NCBI GenBank assembly: GCA_963833985.1
Contig: CAWIAD010000002.1
Location: 6,176,001-6,240,000 of the forward strand
Length of the DNA: 64,000 nucleotides
Direction of reading: 5' to 3'
Origin: an uncultured Planctomycetaceae bacterium
GTDB taxonomy: Bacteria; Planctomycetota; Planctomycetia; Isosphaerales; Isosphaeraceae
The position numbers and the translations under genes were made by a program. Below the pieces are notes generated by a model. It was not told where the DNA came from. It saw only the letters and a program-made list of their open reading frames with translations, and did not search any database. Below, in pieces: positions 1 through 54,315 of this stretch (positions are counted from its first letter, which is position 1; each line of letters begins with the position of its first letter).

Positions 1-1395
1 CCGACCACCTTGCTGGCTGCCATCGAGGACAACCTGGGCCGGGCGAAGTCTGCTCACCTCACGATCACAAGCCGCGACGAACAGAACAAGGAATACAAGG
101 CCGACATCTGGTACGTGCGCGGCGCCGGCGTACGGGCTGAATCTCCCGAGGGCACGATCGTCGAGGATGAAAGCTTCCAGTGGTCCTGGAAGACGCCAGG
201 CCCGGGTGGTGAAACGATTGTCCTGCGCCAGCCGAGACCGAAATTCTTCGGCAAGATGCTGGCTCCCATGCTGGCACTTCCCGACATTCCATCGTTCTTG
301 TCGCGTGATCGTGCGCCCGAGCTGGACCGCCCGGTGAATGGACATGCGTGCCTGGGCTACATCCTCACGCAGACCGGCCGCGATCCGGATTTGCCCCCTG
401 GGGCACGCCCCGTGAATCCGCAGCCCATGCGCCAGCAGGTTCTGGCCGACGCCGACGGACGGATCCACGAGATCGTCTTGCAGGAACAGAACAAGGACGG
501 CAAATGGCGTGCGATCCGCGAGATCCAGATTGCCTACGACCTGCCGGTACCGCCCGAACGGGTCGCCGCGCGGCTGCCCGAACGATCGCGCGTGATCGAC
601 CGGGATCATGTCTTCGAGGACCGCTATCCCCTCGAGCGAGCGCTCTACCGGACCGAGATGGGCGGCCTGATCCTGGCTGTCCACAACATCCAGCCACTGG
701 TCAACCGTGATGGGTTCTATGTCGTCTCCTCGGTGCGCGGGACGCCGGATTTCCTGAGAAAGTACCAGCCCAGGCGGCGCTGGTTGAACCTGGAGGTGAG
801 CGAGCTGGACGTGGCCATGCAGCCGTCCTCGACAGGGATGATGGGCGGCAAGTATGACCGCATCGTGCTGGCGAGGGCATCACACGAGGGGGTGGAGTTC
901 CTGTGGTGGCTGATCATCCCGCGCAAGTACTTCACGATCAAGAACGGCGAGCGCGTCATGCTGCCCGAGACGAACGAATCGTGGGAGCCGGGGGTTCCGG
1001 GCCGGCTCGATGACGTGCCCGGAAAGGCGAGAGTGTTCCTGCAAGCTCTGTACTGGAACGAGAAGCTCCGGACCCCGCAGGGAACGATGGGCACGGTGGA
1101 GCAGTGGGTCGAGGTGCCGTTACCGGCCGATCAGGGCCCGAACACGATCGACAACGTCGCGGCGCTCGCCCGCCGGGACCTTCAAATCATGCAGCACAGC
1201 GGCAACTCGTCCCTCTTTGGCGTGGCCGCCGACACCAGGGATGATCCGCGAAGCGGCAGGCCGCTCTCCGGCTTCCAGCCCGACCAGATCAACGACGCGG
1301 AATACGCGGCCGCCGTTCGACGTGGCGTCGACGACATGCGGCGGTGGGACGAGGTTCACATGCCCGATGCGGCGGATGCGATCGTCGTCCCGTAG
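1..1395 (+). CDS. Hypothetical protein, 5'-partial (frame open from window start)
   Basis: Long ORF with GC-type codon usage; no family recognised. Confidence 0.6.
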   Translation, partial: PTTLLAAIEDNLGRAKSAHLTITSRDEQNKEYKADIWYVRGAGVRAESPEGTIVEDESFQWSWKTPGPGGETIVLRQPRPKFFGKMLAPMLALPDIPSFLSRDRAPELDRPVNGHACLGYILTQTGRDPDLPPGARPVNPQPMRQQVLADADGRIHEIVLQEQNKDGKWRAIREIQIAYDLPVPPERVAARLPERSRVIDRDHVFEDRYPLERALYRTEMGGLILAVHNIQPLVNRDGFYVVSSVRGTPDFLRKYQPRRRWLNLEVSELDVAMQPSSTGMMGGKYDRIVLARASHEGVEFLWWLIIPRKYFTIKNGERVMLPETNESWEPGVPGRLDDVPGKARVFLQALYWNEKLRTPQGTMGTVEQWVEVPLPADQGPNTIDNVAALARRDLQIMQHSGNSSLFGVAADTRDDPRSGRPLSGFQPDQINDAEYAAAVRRGVDDMRRWDEVHMPDAADAIVVP

Positions 1396-43252: not shown

Positions 43253-43407
43253 TCATCTGTCCCGCAGTTCCTGGATTTGGCTCCGTTCTGGCGCCCCTTT
43301 TCGCTCCGCAACGGCTGTATCCTCTTTGCCAATATCAACTTGCGTCGCCAGATCATTGGCTTCGTTCAAGATACTCTGAGAAACGCGCCGAGCACCACCC
43401 GTAGGGT
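43253..43407 (-). pseudogene. Detached 3' end of the gene at 44869..46071
   Basis: Removing the IS and one target copy restores an open frame ...ALTHPTGGARRVSQSILNEANDL...ERSQIQELRDR*. Confidence 0.7.
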
Positions 43408-43427
43408 GGGTCAGCGCAGCGCAACCC
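43401..43427 (+). repeat. GTAG-type REP palindrome (left part; reconstructed GTAGGGTGGGTCAGCGCAGCGCAACCCACC)
   Basis: GTAG tetranucleotide plus GGTGGGT/ACCCACC stem; right part at 44874..44896. Confidence 0.8.
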
Positions 43428-44873
43428 CATAGCGTCCAACTTAAGGAATTTGGCCTAGGAAAAAAGAAAGGAAGTCCTTAATCCAGTTCGCGTTGTATCG
43501 AGCAAGCGCGTCCTGGAAGAAGGAGCTTCCGTTGGGGATCATAAACAAGGTGGCCGTGTTGTTGCAATCGAGCTTGGGTTCGAAACTCGACGAGATCGGT
43601 CGTGCGACGGGCGTGATCCGGCGGCAACGAAAATTCTCGGGCGCGTCGCTGCTCAAGACCATGGTTCTGACTGTGATGAAGACGCCTCGCCCCCATACCA
43701 ACGACTTCGTCGCGACGGCGGCACTGCTGGGTGTGAACGTGACTGCCGAGGCGATCGAAAAGCGGTTCTCGGAGAAGCTCGTCGCGCACTTCGCGCGGGT
43801 TTGGAACACGTGTTGGAGTCCGTCGTGGAGGCGTCGGCGGCCGGCGTGGCGCTGCTGGACAAGTTCACCGCCGTCGTGATCGCCGACAGCACCACGGTGA
43901 CCTTGCCCGACGAATTCGAGGCGGAATTTCCCGGCTGCGGTGGCAAAACGGGCAGTGGTAAGGCAGCGGTGAAAATTCAGGTGGCGTGGGAACTGCGCCG
44001 CGGTCAGTTGGAGAAGTTGGAGGTCCATCCCGGTCGTCACAGCGACGCCACGAGCGTGGACGTGGACGCACCAGTGGCCTCCGGATCGCTGACGCTCCGC
44101 GACCTGGGATACTTTTGCCTGGAGCGGTTCCGATCCATCGGCGCAAGGAGCTTATTGGATTTCGCGTTGGCAACACGGCACGGCCGTTTTCGACGCGGAG
44201 GGGCGGCGATGGGAGATGCTGGCGTTTCTCCGACGGCAACCCGCCGGCATGCCGGTCGACGTGTCGATCGCGGTGGGCGCGGCGGAGCGTCTGGGATGTC
44301 GGTTGATCGCCTTGCGAGTGCCTCCGGAGGTGGCGAACCGACGTCGGCAAGCGGCCTACGAAAAGGCTCAAAAACACGGCCGCGTGCCCACGCAAGAACA
44401 TCTGGACTTGTGCGACTGGACGATTTTCCTGACCAACTGCCTGGCCGCACTTCTGACGTGGAAAGAGGTCGTGGTCCTGTATCGGACGCGCTGGCAAATC
44501 GAACTGCTGTTCAAACTTTGGAAATCTCACAACCACCTCGCCGAGTCGCGTGCACACTGGACCAGCATGGAACGCCTGGCGTTGTTCTGGGCGAAACTGA
44601 TCGGCGTGGTGCTTCAGCATTGGCTGCTCCTGACCGCGAACGCGGCCGATCCCCGCCGCAGCCACTGGAAAGCGGCCCGCGTCATCCGGAACTGGATGGA
44701 ATCCCTGACCCGAGCGTTGGATAACATCGACGAGCTCATACGCACCTTGAGAGACATGGCCACGACGATCGCCAGCGTCGCTCAGAAGAAACGTCGGAAG
44801 AAACGGCCCAGCCTATTCCAACTCCTTTTGGATCCAGAACTTCTGGAATGGAATCCTTAAGTTGGACGCTATG
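43428..44873 (+). mobile_element. IS4-family insertion sequence (~1.45 kb), transposase with two frameshifts
   Basis: Perfect 20-bp terminal IRs CATAGCGTCCAACTTAAGGA; DSTT, DLGY, YRTRWQIELLFKLWKS (YREK); flanking direct repeat. Confidence 0.92.
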
Positions 44874-46071
44874 GGGTCAGCGCAGCGCAACCCACCGTCT
44901 TGCAGACCTTTACGTGCGGCGAGATGCCCCCGCTCGACGACATTCCGGGACCATCCCCGTCGTTCCGGCCGTCGCGCGATTCATCGTGTGGTTGACGTGC
45001 GACTGGCTCGGGCGCGGGGCCGATCTGTGGCTCATGGACAACCGGCATAGGGGGACGGTCGGCCTCGTTGTTGTTGTCGGCGCCGAGCTCGGCTTTTTGC
45101 AGGTTCGACAGCGTGGTCAGCGTACGCAGTAGCTCGCGGGTCAGTGCACCCTGGTGCCGGCGCAGGACCGCAAGGGCCTTGCTGGCGGCGAAGACCGCGC
45201 GGTCGGGCTCGGCGTCGGCTTCCATCTGCTCCAGGTCCTCGTGCTCGCCGAGCCTTGCTTCCAGCCGGTGGATCGCCTCGTCCACGATCGAGCTGAGGAC
45301 CTCCCAGCCCTCTTTCGGGCTGGCCGGCGGGCGAGACAGGCGCCGCCACGGCATCGCGCCGCTGAAATAAGGGCCGGAGCTGGCCTTCATGTTCCGGAAC
45401 AGCTCCCAGAGCTCGCGGCCCTGACCCGGTTCGATCGCGTCGACGGCCTGGAACACGCGGTTGGCGGCCGGGTCGATCATGCCTTCCAGGAAGCTCTTGC
45501 CCATGAGCCGCAGGAACCGGTAGTGGTCGGTCTCGCTCCAGGCGGCCCGCACGTCGATGAGGTTGCGGAACTCGGACCACCGCGCCAGCAGCCAGCGGCA
45601 GCCCTCGGGGATCTGCTCGAGCCGGGCGAGGAAGACGGCGGGCATGTCGTCGTAGTACTCGGCCTTGCCGAACCGCTCACGCGGGTCGAGGGTGTCCAGC
45701 AGCTTGCGGCCCAGGATGTGGGCCTGCTTCAGCCGCGTGGCCTCGTCGCGGTCGCGCTGGCGGTGCACGCGAGCCGCGAGGTAAGCCGTCTCGGCCCGCT
45801 CGGCGCGGTCGATCTGCCAGTCGATGCGCGCCGCATGGCCGACCAGGGTGCGCTCGACGTCGTTGCGCGGCACGAGTTCGAACGTCCACTGCAAGATCCG
45901 TTCGGCGAGCTCCTTCGGATCTTCCTGTGGCAGGACGGGGATGGCGATGCGGGCGTTGGCGCCATGCCTCAGCGCGTTGAGCCGGGCGCGGGCCTTGCCC
46001 TGGTCGCTCTTCGGCCCCGTGCTTTTTGCGGCGTTGCGGCGATTGGCCGCGATCTGGGCTGTGGTGGCCAC
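44869..46071 (-). CDS. 'AANRRNAxKSTGP' family hypothetical protein, C-terminus truncated by the IS4
   Basis: MATTAQIAANRRNAAKSTGPKSDQGK..NALRHG N-terminus; stop codon supplied by the IS end. Confidence 0.8.
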   Translation of the reverse strand: MATTAQIAANRRNAAKSTGPKSDQGKARARLNALRHGANARIAIPVLPQEDPKELAERILQWTFELVPRNDVERTLVGHAARIDWQIDRAERAETAYLAARVHRQRDRDEATRLKQAHILGRKLLDTLDPRERFGKAEYYDDMPAVFLARLEQIPEGCRWLLARWSEFRNLIDVRAAWSETDHYRFLRLMGKSFLEGMIDPAANRVFQAVDAIEPGQGRELWELFRNMKASSGPYFSGAMPWRRLSRPPASPKEGWEVLSSIVDEAIHRLEARLGEHEDLEQMEADAEPDRAVFAASKALAVLRRHQGALTRELLRTLTTLSNLQKAELGADNNNEADRPPMPVVHEPQIGPAPEPVARQPHDESRDGRNDGDGPGMSSSGGISPHVKVCKTVGCAALTP

Positions 46072-46445
46072 GGAGTTGCTCTCTTTGCTTGTAGTGCAGG
46101 TCGTGTATGCGGTGCGCAGAGCGGCCCTGGCTGCTGGTTCACCGAGGAGCGGCGCGGGGAGCGGCCCTCTCGGCGAGCCGCGGCCGATGCGCCGGGATCT
46201 GCCGTCTATCTATGAGGATCCGACCGAAACTGCCAAAAACCGGAGGAATCCGGAGAAATTTTTGGTTTCCCCCTCAGCCGTCGGGCAGGTGTATTCGTAC
46301 GGCAGGCGATGCTTGCGTGCCGGGGCGTCTGCGTCCGCATCTGCGTCGCCGCAGGGCACGCAATCCTTGCCTGCCGGGGCGCGCACCATGACTTCTCCGC
46401 CTGGAGCCCGGGCGCATGGCCAGGTGCGCCAGCGCCATGGACTCT

Positions 46446-46666
46446 GCGGCACATGGCCACGTGCGTGAGCACGTGGTTTTCACGGGCGCAGCCTCCAACC
46501 TCGGGCGTGAGCCCGACCAGCACTGCGCCGCATCACAGGCATCCCCACGGCGATGCTCCACCCGACCCCGCGTCCGCGGCGCATGGCCACGTGCGTGAGC
46601 ACGTGGTTTTCACGGGCGCAGCCTCCAACCTCGGGCGTGAGCCCGACCAGCCCCGCGCCGCATCAC
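46446..46666. repeat. Two ~91-bp direct repeats (period 130 bp), each with two perfect hairpins
   Basis: Copies at 46446..46536 and 46576..46666; CCACGTGC-GTGA-GCACGTGG and TCGGGC-GTGA-GCCCGA. Confidence 0.9.
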
Positions 46667-46671
46667 GCTCA

Positions 46672-47724
46672 TCACCTCACCTCGCACCCGCCCAGGTTCG
46701 CCAGATGATGCCGCCCCAGCCGCCCCGCAATCTCCCGCAGCCGTTCCCGGCTTGCCGCGAAGAACCGCCCCAGCAGCCGGCCCCCGGCCAGCTTCAGCAG
46801 CCGCGCTTGCCAGCTCTCGGCATTGCTCCCCAGCCGTTCCAGGATCCCCGCCAGTTCCGCCGAGATCGCCGCCTTCCCCTCGCGATACAGCCGCCCGGTG
46901 TACTCTACCAGCAGCAGATAGCTGCCCAGCGAGAACCCCTCGACCATCCCTTCGCGACCGCGACCGGAGTCCGAGTCCGAGTCAAGCCCCCGTCGGTCCT
47001 CGATCGGGCACAGCCACAGCCCCTCCTCCAGCCCCTCCGCCGCCTGCGACCCCGCCACGCTGCCGGCCTCGGCGGCCTTCAGGTCCTCGGCTCGCCCCTG
47101 CTCCTGGACGTGCTCGACCCGCTGCTTGATCGACGTGTGGGCACTCGCCTCGGGCACCTCGGCGATGCCCGCGGCCACCGGGTTCAGATCGATGTAAGTG
47201 CAAGTGGCCAGCAACGATTCCTCATCGAGGATCGCCACGCTCTGGAACCGCCCCTCGAAGAACGCCCCGCGGGTGTTCTCCTCGCGGTTGGCCATCCGCG
47301 ACAGCGGCTCCTTGAGGCACTTCATGAACCAGCTCAGGCTTTGCAGCCGCTGGCGTGCCATCACCACCCACTTCACGTCTTTCAGCCGTTCCTTGACCCA
47401 CGCCTCCGAGATCGCAACCGCCCGCCGCGTCTTGTCGCGCGGTGGAAACAGCCTCCCCCAGCGCCGCACGACCTCTTCATCCGCCCACCCCGCAGCCACA
47501 TCCGGGTCGAGCCGCACCAGCAGATGCAGATGGTTATCGAGGATGGCGAACCCTCCCACGGCCACCGAGAAGATCTCCGCAAGTTCCCGCAACCGCCGTT
47601 CGATCCATTCTTTACGGTCGAGATGCCCCTCGCCCAGTAGGAACGCCCGCCGCACACAGCGGCTAATGCAGTGATACCAGCGGGTGACCGACGGATCCAC
47701 CAGATGCGCACGGGCAATCGTCAT
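46672..47724 (-). CDS. HUH/Y1 tyrosine transposase (RAYT-like, 'YHCISRCVRRAFL' type)
   Basis: WYHCISRCVRRAFL, DNHLHLLV (HUH), FFEGRF, TYIDLNPV (catalytic Tyr); SD GGAGGT. Confidence 0.88.
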   Translation of the reverse strand: MTIARAHLVDPSVTRWYHCISRCVRRAFLLGEGHLDRKEWIERRLRELAEIFSVAVGGFAILDNHLHLLVRLDPDVAAGWADEEVVRRWGRLFPPRDKTRRAVAISEAWVKERLKDVKWVVMARQRLQSLSWFMKCLKEPLSRMANREENTRGAFFEGRFQSVAILDEESLLATCTYIDLNPVAAGIAEVPEASAHTSIKQRVEHVQEQGRAEDLKAAEAGSVAGSQAAEGLEEGLWLCPIEDRRGLDSDSDSGRGREGMVEGFSLGSYLLLVEYTGRLYREGKAAISAELAGILERLGSNAESWQARLLKLAGGRLLGRFFAASRERLREIAGRLGRHHLANLGGCEVR

Positions 47725-47751
47725 GCACGGACCTCCCAGCAAGATCCGCAC

Positions 47752-47780
47752 AAGCTACCCAATTCCACCGCCCGAGTCAA
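47752..47780 (-). promoter_or_regulatory. Putative sigma70 promoter of the HUH gene
   Basis: TTGACT-N17-TAGCTT on the minus strand. Confidence 0.6.
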
Positions 47781-47785
47781 GAATA

Positions 47786-48007
47786 CATTGCATGTCCTTG
47801 CTGCTTCTTCATTGCATGTCCTTGCTGCTTCTTGCTGCTTCCTTTGCTGCTTCCCTTTGTCCTTGCTGCTTCTTGCTGCTTCTGCTGCTTCCTTGCATGT
47901 CCTTGCTGCTTCGCTGCTTCGTGTCCTTGCTGCTTCGTGTCCTTGCTGCTTCCTTGCTGCTTCTGTGTCCTTGCTGCTTCTTCCTTGCTGCTTCTGCTTG
48001 CTGCTTC
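47786..48007. repeat. 15-unit coterminal array of variable-length (CATTGCATGTCCTT)GCTGCTTC
   Basis: Every unit ends in GCTGCTTC; left ends vary. Confidence 0.92.
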
Positions 48008-48274
48008 TACCATCCTGATTCTCGAGCCCGAGGTGTTCGGCACGACGACCGGTTCATTGACGGCCGACATCCAGGGCAAGTCTGCGTTCGCGAGCAACGT
48101 CGCCTTCGGCGGCATCCCGGCTTCGGCTCGCCCCCCGGCGCCGGCGGCACCGGCTACGGCGGCGGCCTGTTCGTCGGCGGCGGGACCGTGACTGTCTCGA
48201 AGAAGACGAAGTTCGCCGCGAACTTCGCCATGACCGAAGGCAACGACACCTACGGGCCGTATACCACGACCTGA
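48008..48274 (+). pseudogene. 3' remnant of a Gly-rich extracellular repeat protein
   Basis: ...FASNVAFGG / GAGGTGYGGGLFVGGGTVTV...NFAMTEGNDTYG..*; no start; internal frameshift ~48115. Confidence 0.6.
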
Positions 48275-48720
48275 AGCCGTCGCGCGGACCGCCGCCTCTC
48301 CCGATCGTTCGCCCCGCGAGACCCGGCCGACGGCCGCGCCTCCAGGGCCGCGATCATCCTCTCGCACGCATCGGCTTCGGCCCGTCCTCCGGGAAGTGCA
48401 TCACAACGCGGGAGGGCGAGCCGTCCGGCCCTGGCCGTCTGATTCCCTGAGAAGCTGAAATTGATGATGACGCTCAACTTCCAGCGATTCGAAGATGTTT
48501 CACTCGTGGCCGCGTAAAGTATTCTTGGGCGACATCGGCGTATGCCCCCTCGAAACGTTGCTCGAGAGATTTCATTGAGCTTGTCAGACGAGGGCAAGCA
48601 GGCTCACATGGCCCTGATTGACGGACGAGGCAGGGTGCTGATACGTTCGGAACGTCTGCCCGTTCAGTTTGACAGGGGCCAGCCTGCGTGGGTGGAGAAG
48701 ACCCGAGAGTGAGCCATCCC

Positions 48721-49377
48721 ATGAGTACGATGATTGCACCGCCAAGGAACGAGGCGCGGCTGGTCGTGCCGGATGTCTCCTGGTCGGTCTACGAGACCTG
48801 GGTCGACTCGCTACCCGAATCAACGCCGGTGCGGATGGCCTACGACGGAAGGAACCTGGAGATCATGACAAAAGGGCCGGACCATGAGGATTACCGGCAG
48901 CTCCTGGGGCATCTTGTCGTCGAGACCGCACGGGCACTGAGGCTATCACTCAAAGGTCTGGGCGAGACGACGTGGAAACGCGTCGAGATCCAGCGCGGGA
49001 TCGAGGCCGACCAGTGCTACTACTTCAGCCCCGAAAAGCTCGTGGAGGCGACGCGAAGCCGAGGGGCAAACGATGTTACCTCGTTTCCGAATCCCGACCT
49101 GGCCATCGAGGTTGACCTTTCGCCATCGCAGATCGACAGGCCCGGCATCTACGCCGCGTTGGGCGTAGCAGAAGTCTGGCGCTTCGACGGCGAGACGACG
49201 ACGATCGAGCGCCTGGGCACGGATGGGCGATACGAACTGGCCGCGGCGAGCACCTTCCTGGGCATACGGGCCGACGAGGTCACGCGATGGCTTGTCGCCG
49301 AGGACTCAACTGACGAGATTGCCTGGCTGGAGCGGCTTTCTGACTGGCTCAGGAACGAATGGCAGAAACGGCCCTGA
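48721..49377 (+). CDS. Uma2-family endonuclease-fold protein
   Basis: VSWSVYE, RMAYDG.LEIM, IEADQCYY, PDLAIEVD, EVWRFDG. Confidence 0.9.
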   Translation: MSTMIAPPRNEARLVVPDVSWSVYETWVDSLPESTPVRMAYDGRNLEIMTKGPDHEDYRQLLGHLVVETARALRLSLKGLGETTWKRVEIQRGIEADQCYYFSPEKLVEATRSRGANDVTSFPNPDLAIEVDLSPSQIDRPGIYAALGVAEVWRFDGETTTIERLGTDGRYELAAASTFLGIRADEVTRWLVAEDSTDEIAWLERLSDWLRNEWQKRP

Positions 49378-53394: not shown

Positions 53395-54183
53395 TCAGCT
53401 CGCCTCGAGGACGGACCGCCAGCGCCTGGGTACGGAATCGAAGGCAATCTGGTAGGTTTCCTCGAGCGGTACGGGCACGTATTGGTCCACGTCAAGGTAG
53501 AGAGGCATGTCGATGAGCCTCTCGCCCACGCAGACCGGCTCGACATAAGCGCGCACGAGGGTTCCCGCCTCGTAGGCGGCCAGCGTGAGCGGCTTGTCCG
53601 CGGGGCGTTCGTAATCCTGGCCGGCAAACTCGTCCCAGATCGCGCCGTGGATGCCCTGCCGATCGCGTGCGGTCGGCGGCTGGAGATCGAGGATCAGGAG
53701 GTGGATCTGGTGGCTGAGGAACTCCGCGGCCTTGCGGACGAAATCTTCAAAAGCCTTGCGATCGGCCTTGTTGCCTCGCGACACGACCTCGACGATGGCC
53801 ACCAGTTCATCGCCGGAAAGGTGGCGCACAGCCACGACGTTCTGTTTACGACGATAGAACTCGTGGTCGGTCTCGGCCGTCACATGCACCTGCGGCCGCG
53901 CTGTGAGTAATCCTCCCCCAGCCGGGCCGTTTCCGTTGCCATGACTGGAATCTCGCCTCATCGCCGTTTGTGCCGGGCCATCCGCGGATGCACTGGTTTC
54001 ATCTCTGGTCCTGGTTCGTGTCAGGACATCCGGTACAAATCTGGCTCCTTGCTGCTCGGCGAGGGCATAGTAGTCGCTCGGAAGTATTCGCTGATTCAGC
54101 ACGTTGGCAATGGCACCGACCCACGCTTGACGGAAGTGATGAAAGATCCCCGCGTCGACTCGTGTCCAGTCGTGGATTGGCAT
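53395..54183 (-). CDS. DUF4058-like PD-(D/E)XK-fold protein
   Basis: MPIHDWTRVDAGIFHHF, EVVSRGNK, VPLEETY. Confidence 0.8.
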   Translation of the reverse strand: MPIHDWTRVDAGIFHHFRQAWVGAIANVLNQRILPSDYYALAEQQGARFVPDVLTRTRTRDETSASADGPAQTAMRRDSSHGNGNGPAGGGLLTARPQVHVTAETDHEFYRRKQNVVAVRHLSGDELVAIVEVVSRGNKADRKAFEDFVRKAAEFLSHQIHLLILDLQPPTARDRQGIHGAIWDEFAGQDYERPADKPLTLAAYEAGTLVRAYVEPVCVGERLIDMPLYLDVDQYVPVPLEETYQIAFDSVPRRWRSVLEAS

Positions 54184-54315
54184 CGTCGTGCTCTGGCCTC
54201 CGCGTGAAGCTGCCATTCGATTTCGCCCTTCTATCATAGCGGCAGGCGGGTGGGCTCACCACGCACGCCGGTCAACGGCGAACCGGAAGTTCAGCAGAGG
54301 CGACCGATCAACGTC

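Follow-up and report, generated by a model that had tools for sequence, protein, structure and literature searches.

The window, i.e. the whole 64-kb stretch of DNA that was analysed, harbors an intact gene encoding a 350-aa Y1/HUH transposase, preceded by an array of short truncated units and followed by hairpin-rich repeats (Table 1). The genome to which it belongs (hereafter G000; 10.2 Mb in two contigs, C1 and C2) contains 11 full-length copies of the element at 85-100% identity, in addition to near-full and partial ones. The protein matches the Pfam profile Y1_Tnp (PF01797) with 24.1 bits, above the cut-off of 23, and scores 40 with NF047646, under the cut-off of 80. H65 and H67 are at least 90% conserved and Y177 is invariant in an alignment of 45 sequences. 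The best structural match of the predicted model (pLDDT 73.6), which includes a helical insertion at about residues 74-128, is TnpA-REP 4ER8 (Z 8.2, rmsd 3.7, 153 aligned residues; Foldseek probability 0.97 but E 0.31), and a PDB sequence search with the protein found no relative. The protein is a member of TnpA-Y1 (IS200/RAYT superfamily), and its enzymatic activity is predicted from its sequence and model.

Comparison of its motifs with Table 1 of Quentin et al. (2018) suggests that the transposase fits TnpA-Y1 subclass 2.3 by its length (350 aa versus a median of 325), by the NHxH, YxDLNP and TS motifs present in both, by insertions after beta1 and beta3, by the many copies per genome and by the absence of REP hairpins. 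Alteromonadales members of this subclass are ~35% identical to the protein of the window, which is found in a planctomycete, unlike the members described. Furthermore, in the accessible part of that work (PMC6006769), flanking signals were not found for subclass 2.3 and neither ends nor mechanism are defined, whereas the present analysis defines a TIR motif as well as an end position, along with miniature elements and ragged arrays.

The hairpin-rich repeat located downstream of the gene occupies the place of the inverted right end of relatives. No inverted right end was found within 3 kb of the window copy and only one of the 14 copies examined in G000 has one; 13 of the 14 have a different repeat, a hairpin one, 27-50 nt past the last codon. 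The hairpin-rich repeat follows nearly every transposase copy, forms clusters and arrays at C2:1859401-1860500 and also flanks an IS200-like gene in inverted orientation, with short arrays of its own. Beyond it, a 400-aa ORF (MATTAQIAANRRNA...; 44869-46071, minus strand) without Pfam or NCBIfam match belongs to a ~1.6-kb unit that has about a dozen copies in the genome and is also found downstream of the element copy at C2:802308. A multicopy ~1.5-kb IS-like element (about 43405-44896), apparently frameshifted and with other copies about 99% identical, is inserted at the end of this ORF. On the other side lie genes encoding a Uma2-family putative endonuclease (48688-49377) and a DUF4058 protein (53395-54237), which belong to ordinary planctomycete multicopy families; these were the only matches among four neighbouring proteins scanned. 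No empty allele of the window locus was found among 41 genomes or by a translated search of the flank.

Table 1. Features of the transposase locus (window coordinates)
Feature	Position	Strand	Remarks
Two copies of a ~104-130-nt hairpin-rich repeat	46443..46676	-	Directly 3' of the stop codon; ~100 copies genome-wide
Intact 350-aa Y1/HUH transposase gene, subclass 2.3-like	46672..47724	-	N64-H65-L66-H67, Y177-I-D-L-N-P, T197-S198
Promoter-like TTGACT-17-TAGCTT	47752..47780	-	Pattern conserved among left ends
Conserved end (TIR) motif GGACATGCAATG	47786..47797	-	No significant hairpin (fold z = 0.46 and 0.62)
10-nt locus-specific tip GAAGCAGCAA	47798..47807	-	Predicted main nick directly 5' of it
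14 added units (200 nt), tandem duplications with ragged inner ends	47808..48007	-	Start 10-12 nt outside the GGACA motif
Outer flank	48008..48274	+	Resembles, and may be, what is left of the 3' part of a Gly-rich repeat gene truncated by the element end

Anatomy of the array

A preliminary description of this DNA had reported 15 units ending in GCTGCTTC, each a piece of 8-22 nt of a 22-nt master, with 0-4 extra bases at the joints. All 15 ends were found as claimed and the unit lengths and extra bases hold when compared with the innermost copy. The 64-kb window contains 18 matches to GCTGCTTC versus 3.3 ± 1.5 expected, 15 of which stand head-to-tail at 47786-48007, and suffixes of the master of at least 13 nt are confined to this array within the 10.2-Mb genome (nine matches at 13 nt). 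However, the innermost of these units (47786-47807) is the element's own end, and hence the added units number 14. Furthermore, the 22-nt master is not a natural unit but merely the longest duplication at this locus, other loci reaching ~82, 153, 178 and ~550 nt. The units do share GAAGCAGC as their end, but this is a locus-specific tip, and the conserved left-end signal, GGACA[T/G]GCA, sits 10 nt further inward, 73 nt ahead of the start codon. The 10 nt outside this motif differ at every G000 locus inspected. The nearest sister copy shows 12 differences in 1126 nt, yet it has a different tip.

The main nick is predicted directly 5' of GAAGCAGCAA on the minus strand, between 47808 and 47807, with a wobble of about -9 to -12. 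The left end does not fold better than shuffled sequences, and a model involving hairpin recognition was therefore rejected. The statement that the innermost unit adjoins the promoter of the gene is borne out by conservation: a TTGn[CA]n-16..19-TAnnnT pattern is found between motif and start codon at 58 of 81 left ends versus 0 of 81 control stretches inside genes. A strict sigma-70 scan of 47600-48100 called no site.

The window array unrolls fully from its inner end in 14 steps, nine of them perfect and five with 1-4 extra bases, the unit starts being at -10 to -12 (one ambiguous). If only perfect duplications are allowed, 21 of them (1-24 nt long, offsets 9-12) are required to unroll the array exactly, and every base is then explained. 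Since shuffled orders perform about equally (15 of 60 permutations unroll as cheaply, so that the order of this array alone is not distinguished from shuffled ones), the exact unrolling is not counted as evidence of order. We infer from the growth order of pooled arrays (see below) that the outermost of the 14 units is the oldest.

Ends and arrays across the family

At 67 of 80 related loci, the motif is located at most 220 nt upstream of the gene. Units were counted at 80 left ends, from 66 relatives and the 14 G000 copies. At least one adjacent unit is present at 34 of the 80 left ends, versus 33 of 1500 random anchors and 19 of 800 purine-rich ones (Fisher p 8e-26); homologues therefore carry, in their flanks, coterminal arrays of their own termini. 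Moreover, 41 of the 68 relatives with enough downstream DNA have an inverted copy of the motif 65-423 nt after the gene (background: 4 of 63 windows), which indicates that the family is TIR-bounded and TIRtron-like. Mirror-oriented units are found at 20 of these 41 right ends. The proposed tie between the array and the end of an HUH element is supported. The inverted second end with its mirror arrays in relatives, and the recognition of the element as a transposon that has many copies and belongs to a named class, go beyond the preliminary description.

Within a search range of -16 to +3, 74 of 93 unit starts at left ends and 48 of 63 at right ends fall between -12 and -8, with a peak 9-10 nt outside the motif. 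Unit ends spread from -8 to +96, one ~550-nt unit covering half the gene (C2:3954755), and the median duplication length is 16 nt. Each array copies only the tip of its own locus. Among 17 pairs with end bodies at least 93% identical, 13 (three lineages only) share 7-11 nt outside the motif and the four others share just 0-3 nt, which suggests that the tip moves with the element and turns over fast.

G000 also contains miniature elements of ~50 bp that consist of two inverted ends. Those found at C2:3032841-3032893, 3035175-3035227, 5023786-5023831, 510432-510484 and 2788190 have two inverted GGACA ends with arrays outside, and several such elements connect unrelated flanks or occur at deletions in transposase copies. 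In the genome G041, the motif pattern has 232 matches versus 0 for the reversed control. Several types of ends, each a tip plus a body, are dispersed there as nested ragged fragments (L135-L150), which constitute the best natural dataset for event reconstruction.

Gammaproteobacterial homologues (~35% identity) have ends of the form xGACA[CG][CG]CA, and duplications are present at 4 of the 14 ends located; they measure 11, 36, 153 and 178 nt and begin between -8 and -12. The icd-ilvI site of Pseudoalteromonas is empty in one species and filled by a distant homologue in two strains whose end arrays differ, the filled/empty pair being too diverged for a target duplication to be read. Colinear flanks were found for 0 of 32 two-ended relatives compared with G000 and fetched loci, mostly for want of homologues.

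A motif-free detector found ragged arrays in 21 of 150 flanks of subclass 2.3 genes, 9 of 174 flanks of subclass 2.1, none of 58 REP-RAYT (2.2) flanks and 8 of 1500 random windows (2.3 versus 2.2, p 0.001; 2.1 versus 2.2, p 0.12, not significant). The polarity that it assigns is unreliable, 5 of the 21 subclass 2.3 detections scoring better on the opposite strand, and it missed all 20 gammaproteobacterial flanks, for which the motif-anchored search gave the 4 of 14 ends mentioned above.

Other TIR-type Y1 genes of G000 have bigger arrays built from their own motifs. Subclass 2.1-like Y1 genes at C2:3098250-3098940 and C2:2426900-2427240 (L155, L269, L289) show at both ends ragged arrays of at least 17 units, with multi-unit block repeats and another end motif, GTGTCAGTTCATTTT, which has 39 matches in the genome versus 0 for the reversed control. 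Two ~450-aa 2.3-like Y1 genes (C2:551499 and 2519187; L157) have nested arrays at both ends, with a third motif, GCCACCCAC. The ends of 2.1-type relatives carry GGGGACA or GGGGTCA. Canonical REP-type RAYT genes with regular REP arrays, at C2:1566381 and C1:530016, provide a contrast class.

Origin of the units

The pool in which joints were analysed comprised 227 units in 118 distinct arrays; these came from G000, from the 80 relatives and from regions of G041-G045 that are rich in the motif. Gammaproteobacterial loci and loci from the flank search (L081-L104) were excluded, low-complexity tips were skipped and unit starts were restricted to -8 to -16; these arrays are non-independent samples, many of them coming from motif-rich regions of two genomes. 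Perfect in-place tandem duplications account for 170 of the 227 units, whereas 57 are imperfect as duplications at the 8-nt detection limit, which counts against in-place copying. In arrays of at least three units, 71 of 98 joints with extra bases are explained by the bases preceding the own unit, versus 46.4 ± 2.5 when contexts were permuted within the array (71 was reached in 0 of 5000 permutations); the extra bases are thus inherited from the outer neighbour unit. In 34 of 109 neighbouring pairs, the outer unit exceeds the inner one in length and hence cannot be a copy of it, which requires that new units were inserted at the inner boundary. Microhomology at the joints is at chance level (mean 0.98 observed versus 1.11 simulated; none in 54% versus 50%) and only 7 of 109 neighbouring units are identical, which fits ligation rather than slippage. 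The view that constant-period slippage is inadequate, already put forward in the preliminary description, is therefore upheld. Taken together, inherited joint bases and the lack of excess microhomology favour sequential in-place duplication at the inner boundary and speak against slippage and telomerase-like addition as well as against the capture of free oligos.

At the fixed end, 68 of the 88 cases without ambiguity begin with a purine (G44 A24 C10 T10) and the base preceding the inferred nick, as read from this genomic proxy, is unconstrained (G32 C20 T20 A16). Most units end inside the motif, at positions +3, +5 and +7. Ragged ends favour purine/pyrimidine steps (last base purine in 85% versus 70% simulated; next base A in 9% versus 24%), a bias that a plain polymerase stall would not predict.

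The array consists of the left end of a Y1/HUH transposon of the inverted-repeat type and of 14 in-place duplications of that end, which probably arose through abortive initiation cycles of the transposase. The simplest route to in-place duplications that have a fixed 5' start and a free 3' end and need no homology would be as follows. The enzyme would bind the non-hairpin motif and nick the strand that reads GGACA inward, at a place set by distance (~9-12 nt) and not by a fixed sequence, Tyr177 keeping the 5' tip. The host polymerase would extend the 3'-OH of the flank into the element, displacing the tip, and synthesis would usually halt after 1-25 nt, often within the bound motif; units ending within the motif might thus result from the polymerase meeting the bound enzyme. 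The new 3'-OH would then attack the phosphotyrosine, sealing an n-nt loop. Replication would fix the duplication and the intact inner end could be nicked again, leading to growth at the inner boundary. Nick wobble combined with cycles of 1-4 nt would remodel the tip and would account for the differing tips of 99%-identical copies. Productive cycles would likely transfer either the end alone or the complete element to 3'-OH ends located far away. At C2:1453087, a several-kb duplication (C2:1453097-1458013 versus 1400133-1413131, about 99% identical and IS-peppered) stops 9 nt outside a GGACA motif, and G041 contains scattered short fragments of ends that have kept inherited tips. This suggests that joining of the same 5' end to remote 3' ends is possible. 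HUH strand transfer, invoked in the preliminary description, is retained as the likely joining step, whereas the transfer of captured free oligos finds no support.

Perfect duplication alone does not tell which strand was cut. Moreover, IS200/REP enzymes require single-stranded hairpin DNA, which counts against action on a non-hairpin end, and the window copy has no inverted right end within 3 kb, which also weighs against the model. Cleavage by HUH enzymes yields a 5'-phosphotyrosine and a free 3'-OH, from which DNA can be synthesized or which can itself attack the phosphotyrosine (accessible part of PMC8266576). Nearly the same scheme, with a second cut and constant units, was proposed for BIME amplification by Ton-Hoang et al. 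(2012) as an untested model (Fig. 7B in the accessible part of PMC3333891).

The same enzyme could also act by one-ended strand transfer between sister duplexes or at the replication fork, which we consider unlikely. The fixed end would be joined to a variable cut lying a few bases within the end of the sister (with opposite-strand polarity), or the transposase would make a second cut as in the BIME model. Perfect in-place duplications, joint memory and lack of microhomology would be expected from this route too; the purine/pyrimidine bias could reflect a weak cleavage preference, and element ends are also found at junctions of distant rearrangements in G000. However, a near-random second cleavage 1-25 nt from the first would be required, and the bias of the ragged ends is unlike that of the fixed end, where the first base is mostly a purine and the preceding base is free. 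Furthermore, it is the 5' end bound to the tyrosine that is fixed in IS91 and in Helitrons, which also counts against this route.

Serial capture of free truncated end-oligos from other copies, or their telomerase-style addition in one burst during integration, appears still less probable. Fixed 5' ends and ragged 3' ends would be expected, and there are indeed short fragments of ends, dispersed and with inherited tips, as well as nested ends that belong to different copies. Nevertheless, all units of the window carry the locus-unique tip whereas the sister copy has another one, and joint bases derive from the neighbouring unit. Two-tier arrays, in which one body has two tips (C2:2547749), are not explained by a single donor template. 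The telomere-like or telomerase-like addition considered in the preliminary description thus does not agree with units that are in-place duplications, nor does its DNA-capture system, as the units hold only local end sequence and nothing foreign.

Replication slippage, unequal recombination or break repair by the host at purine-rich ends, with no involvement of the transposase, is very improbable as the origin of the arrays. Tips are indeed A/G-rich, and adjacent units that are identical, or blocks of several units, occur in some arrays (C2:3098785; a 12-nt run repeated four times), so that secondary expansion probably contributes. However, 68 of the 118 arrays consist of just one unit, whose start is already at the fixed offset, neighbours are rarely identical, microhomology is not in excess, purine-rich control anchors score 2.4% and the position follows a different motif in each transposase subfamily. 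Finally, an assembly or base-calling artefact, as judged from the assemblies, can practically be set aside, since the arrays are always motif-anchored and the same anatomy is found in dozens of independent assemblies, including contigs with short-read names (k141, NODE), and in complete replicons of cultured Pseudoalteromonas and Catenovulum. No sequencing run was listed for 46000-49000.

Relation to known systems and significance

The family resembles TIRtrons (TIRYT; Di Nocera et al. 2013, PMC3733652), in which a tyrosine transposase gene lies between inverted repeats that are not REPs, and whose TIRs likewise occur as dimers and clusters. Flanking inverted repeats are seen in 41 of 68 relatives but in only 1 of 14 G000 copies, and were not found within 3 kb of the window copy. 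The GGGGWSAS consensus, which concerns only some TIRs of TIRtrons, differs from GGACA[T/G]GCA, whose preceding bases are variable. The accessible text of that paper mentions clusters only, without truncated coterminal polarised arrays or an end offset, and its Figure 9, which gives upstream TIR sequences, could include such arrays. In contrast to REPtrons, whose genes are flanked by GT[AG]G-footed hairpins, the left end has no hairpin.

With REP/BIME amplification, as presented in the accessible parts of PMC3333891 and PMC8266576, the element shares the fold (4ER8) and a proposed sequence of nick, 3'-OH extension and attack on the 5'-phosphotyrosine that adds one unit. BIMEs involve constant units, a GTAG hairpin, cleavage between C and T and a second cut, whereas this family has no hairpin, no dinucleotide rule at the fixed end (as judged by genomic proxy) and lengths that begin at 1 nt and reach hundreds. 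Among HUH elements, IS91/ISCR, Helitrons and Replitrons likewise combine a precise end with a variable or fuzzy one and capture flanking DNA, but they have unrelated Rep-type or Y2 transposases and dissimilar left and right ends (Craig 2023, accessible part of PMC10288648), whereas this family has two equivalent inverted ends, both stuttering outward. Telomerase-like or CRISPR-like acquisition relies on a dedicated template or polymerase, or on foreign spacers, whereas the units found here are local end sequence.

The gene class already has a name, and a hypothesis on the chemistry has been published. What appears to be new is the definition of the ends, the boundary set by distance and the ragged arrays with their polarity, as these were not found in the literature searched: no published description of ragged end arrays of Y1 elements was found in sources that only thinly cover subscription journals, figures and supplements. 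Most likely, on present sequence evidence, the array is a by-product of false starts of the transposase, neither a telomere nor a capture system.

A broader reading, which is possible but doubtful, is that Y1 enzymes of subclasses 2.1 and 2.3 form a separate HUH class. They would recognize a non-hairpin TIR motif, nick at a measured distance on opposite strands at the two ends and give both 5' ends to host 3'-OH, as a replicative counterpart of Mu type with reverse polarity, abortive cycles writing a one-directional and time-ordered tape at each end. If this reading is true, the array would be a natural event recorder made by one protein.

No ends, substrate or mechanism are described for subclass 2.1, the largest class-2 Y1 group, or for subclass 2.3 in the part of the literature covered. 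The arrays provide for them a candidate binding motif, a putative cut position, the likely strand and a sign of probable in vivo activity, from which a cleavage and strand-transfer assay can be directly designed. If confirmed, cleavage at a distance from a non-hairpin motif, acceptance of any 3' base and ordered addition of units would make such an HUH enzyme useful for labelling DNA or recording events. The arrays may furthermore be viewed as traces left in genomes by the nick-extend-rejoin step that was put forward in 2012 for REP/BIME amplification (accessible part of PMC3333891), and the ends of the element also mark duplications and deletions in these genomes.
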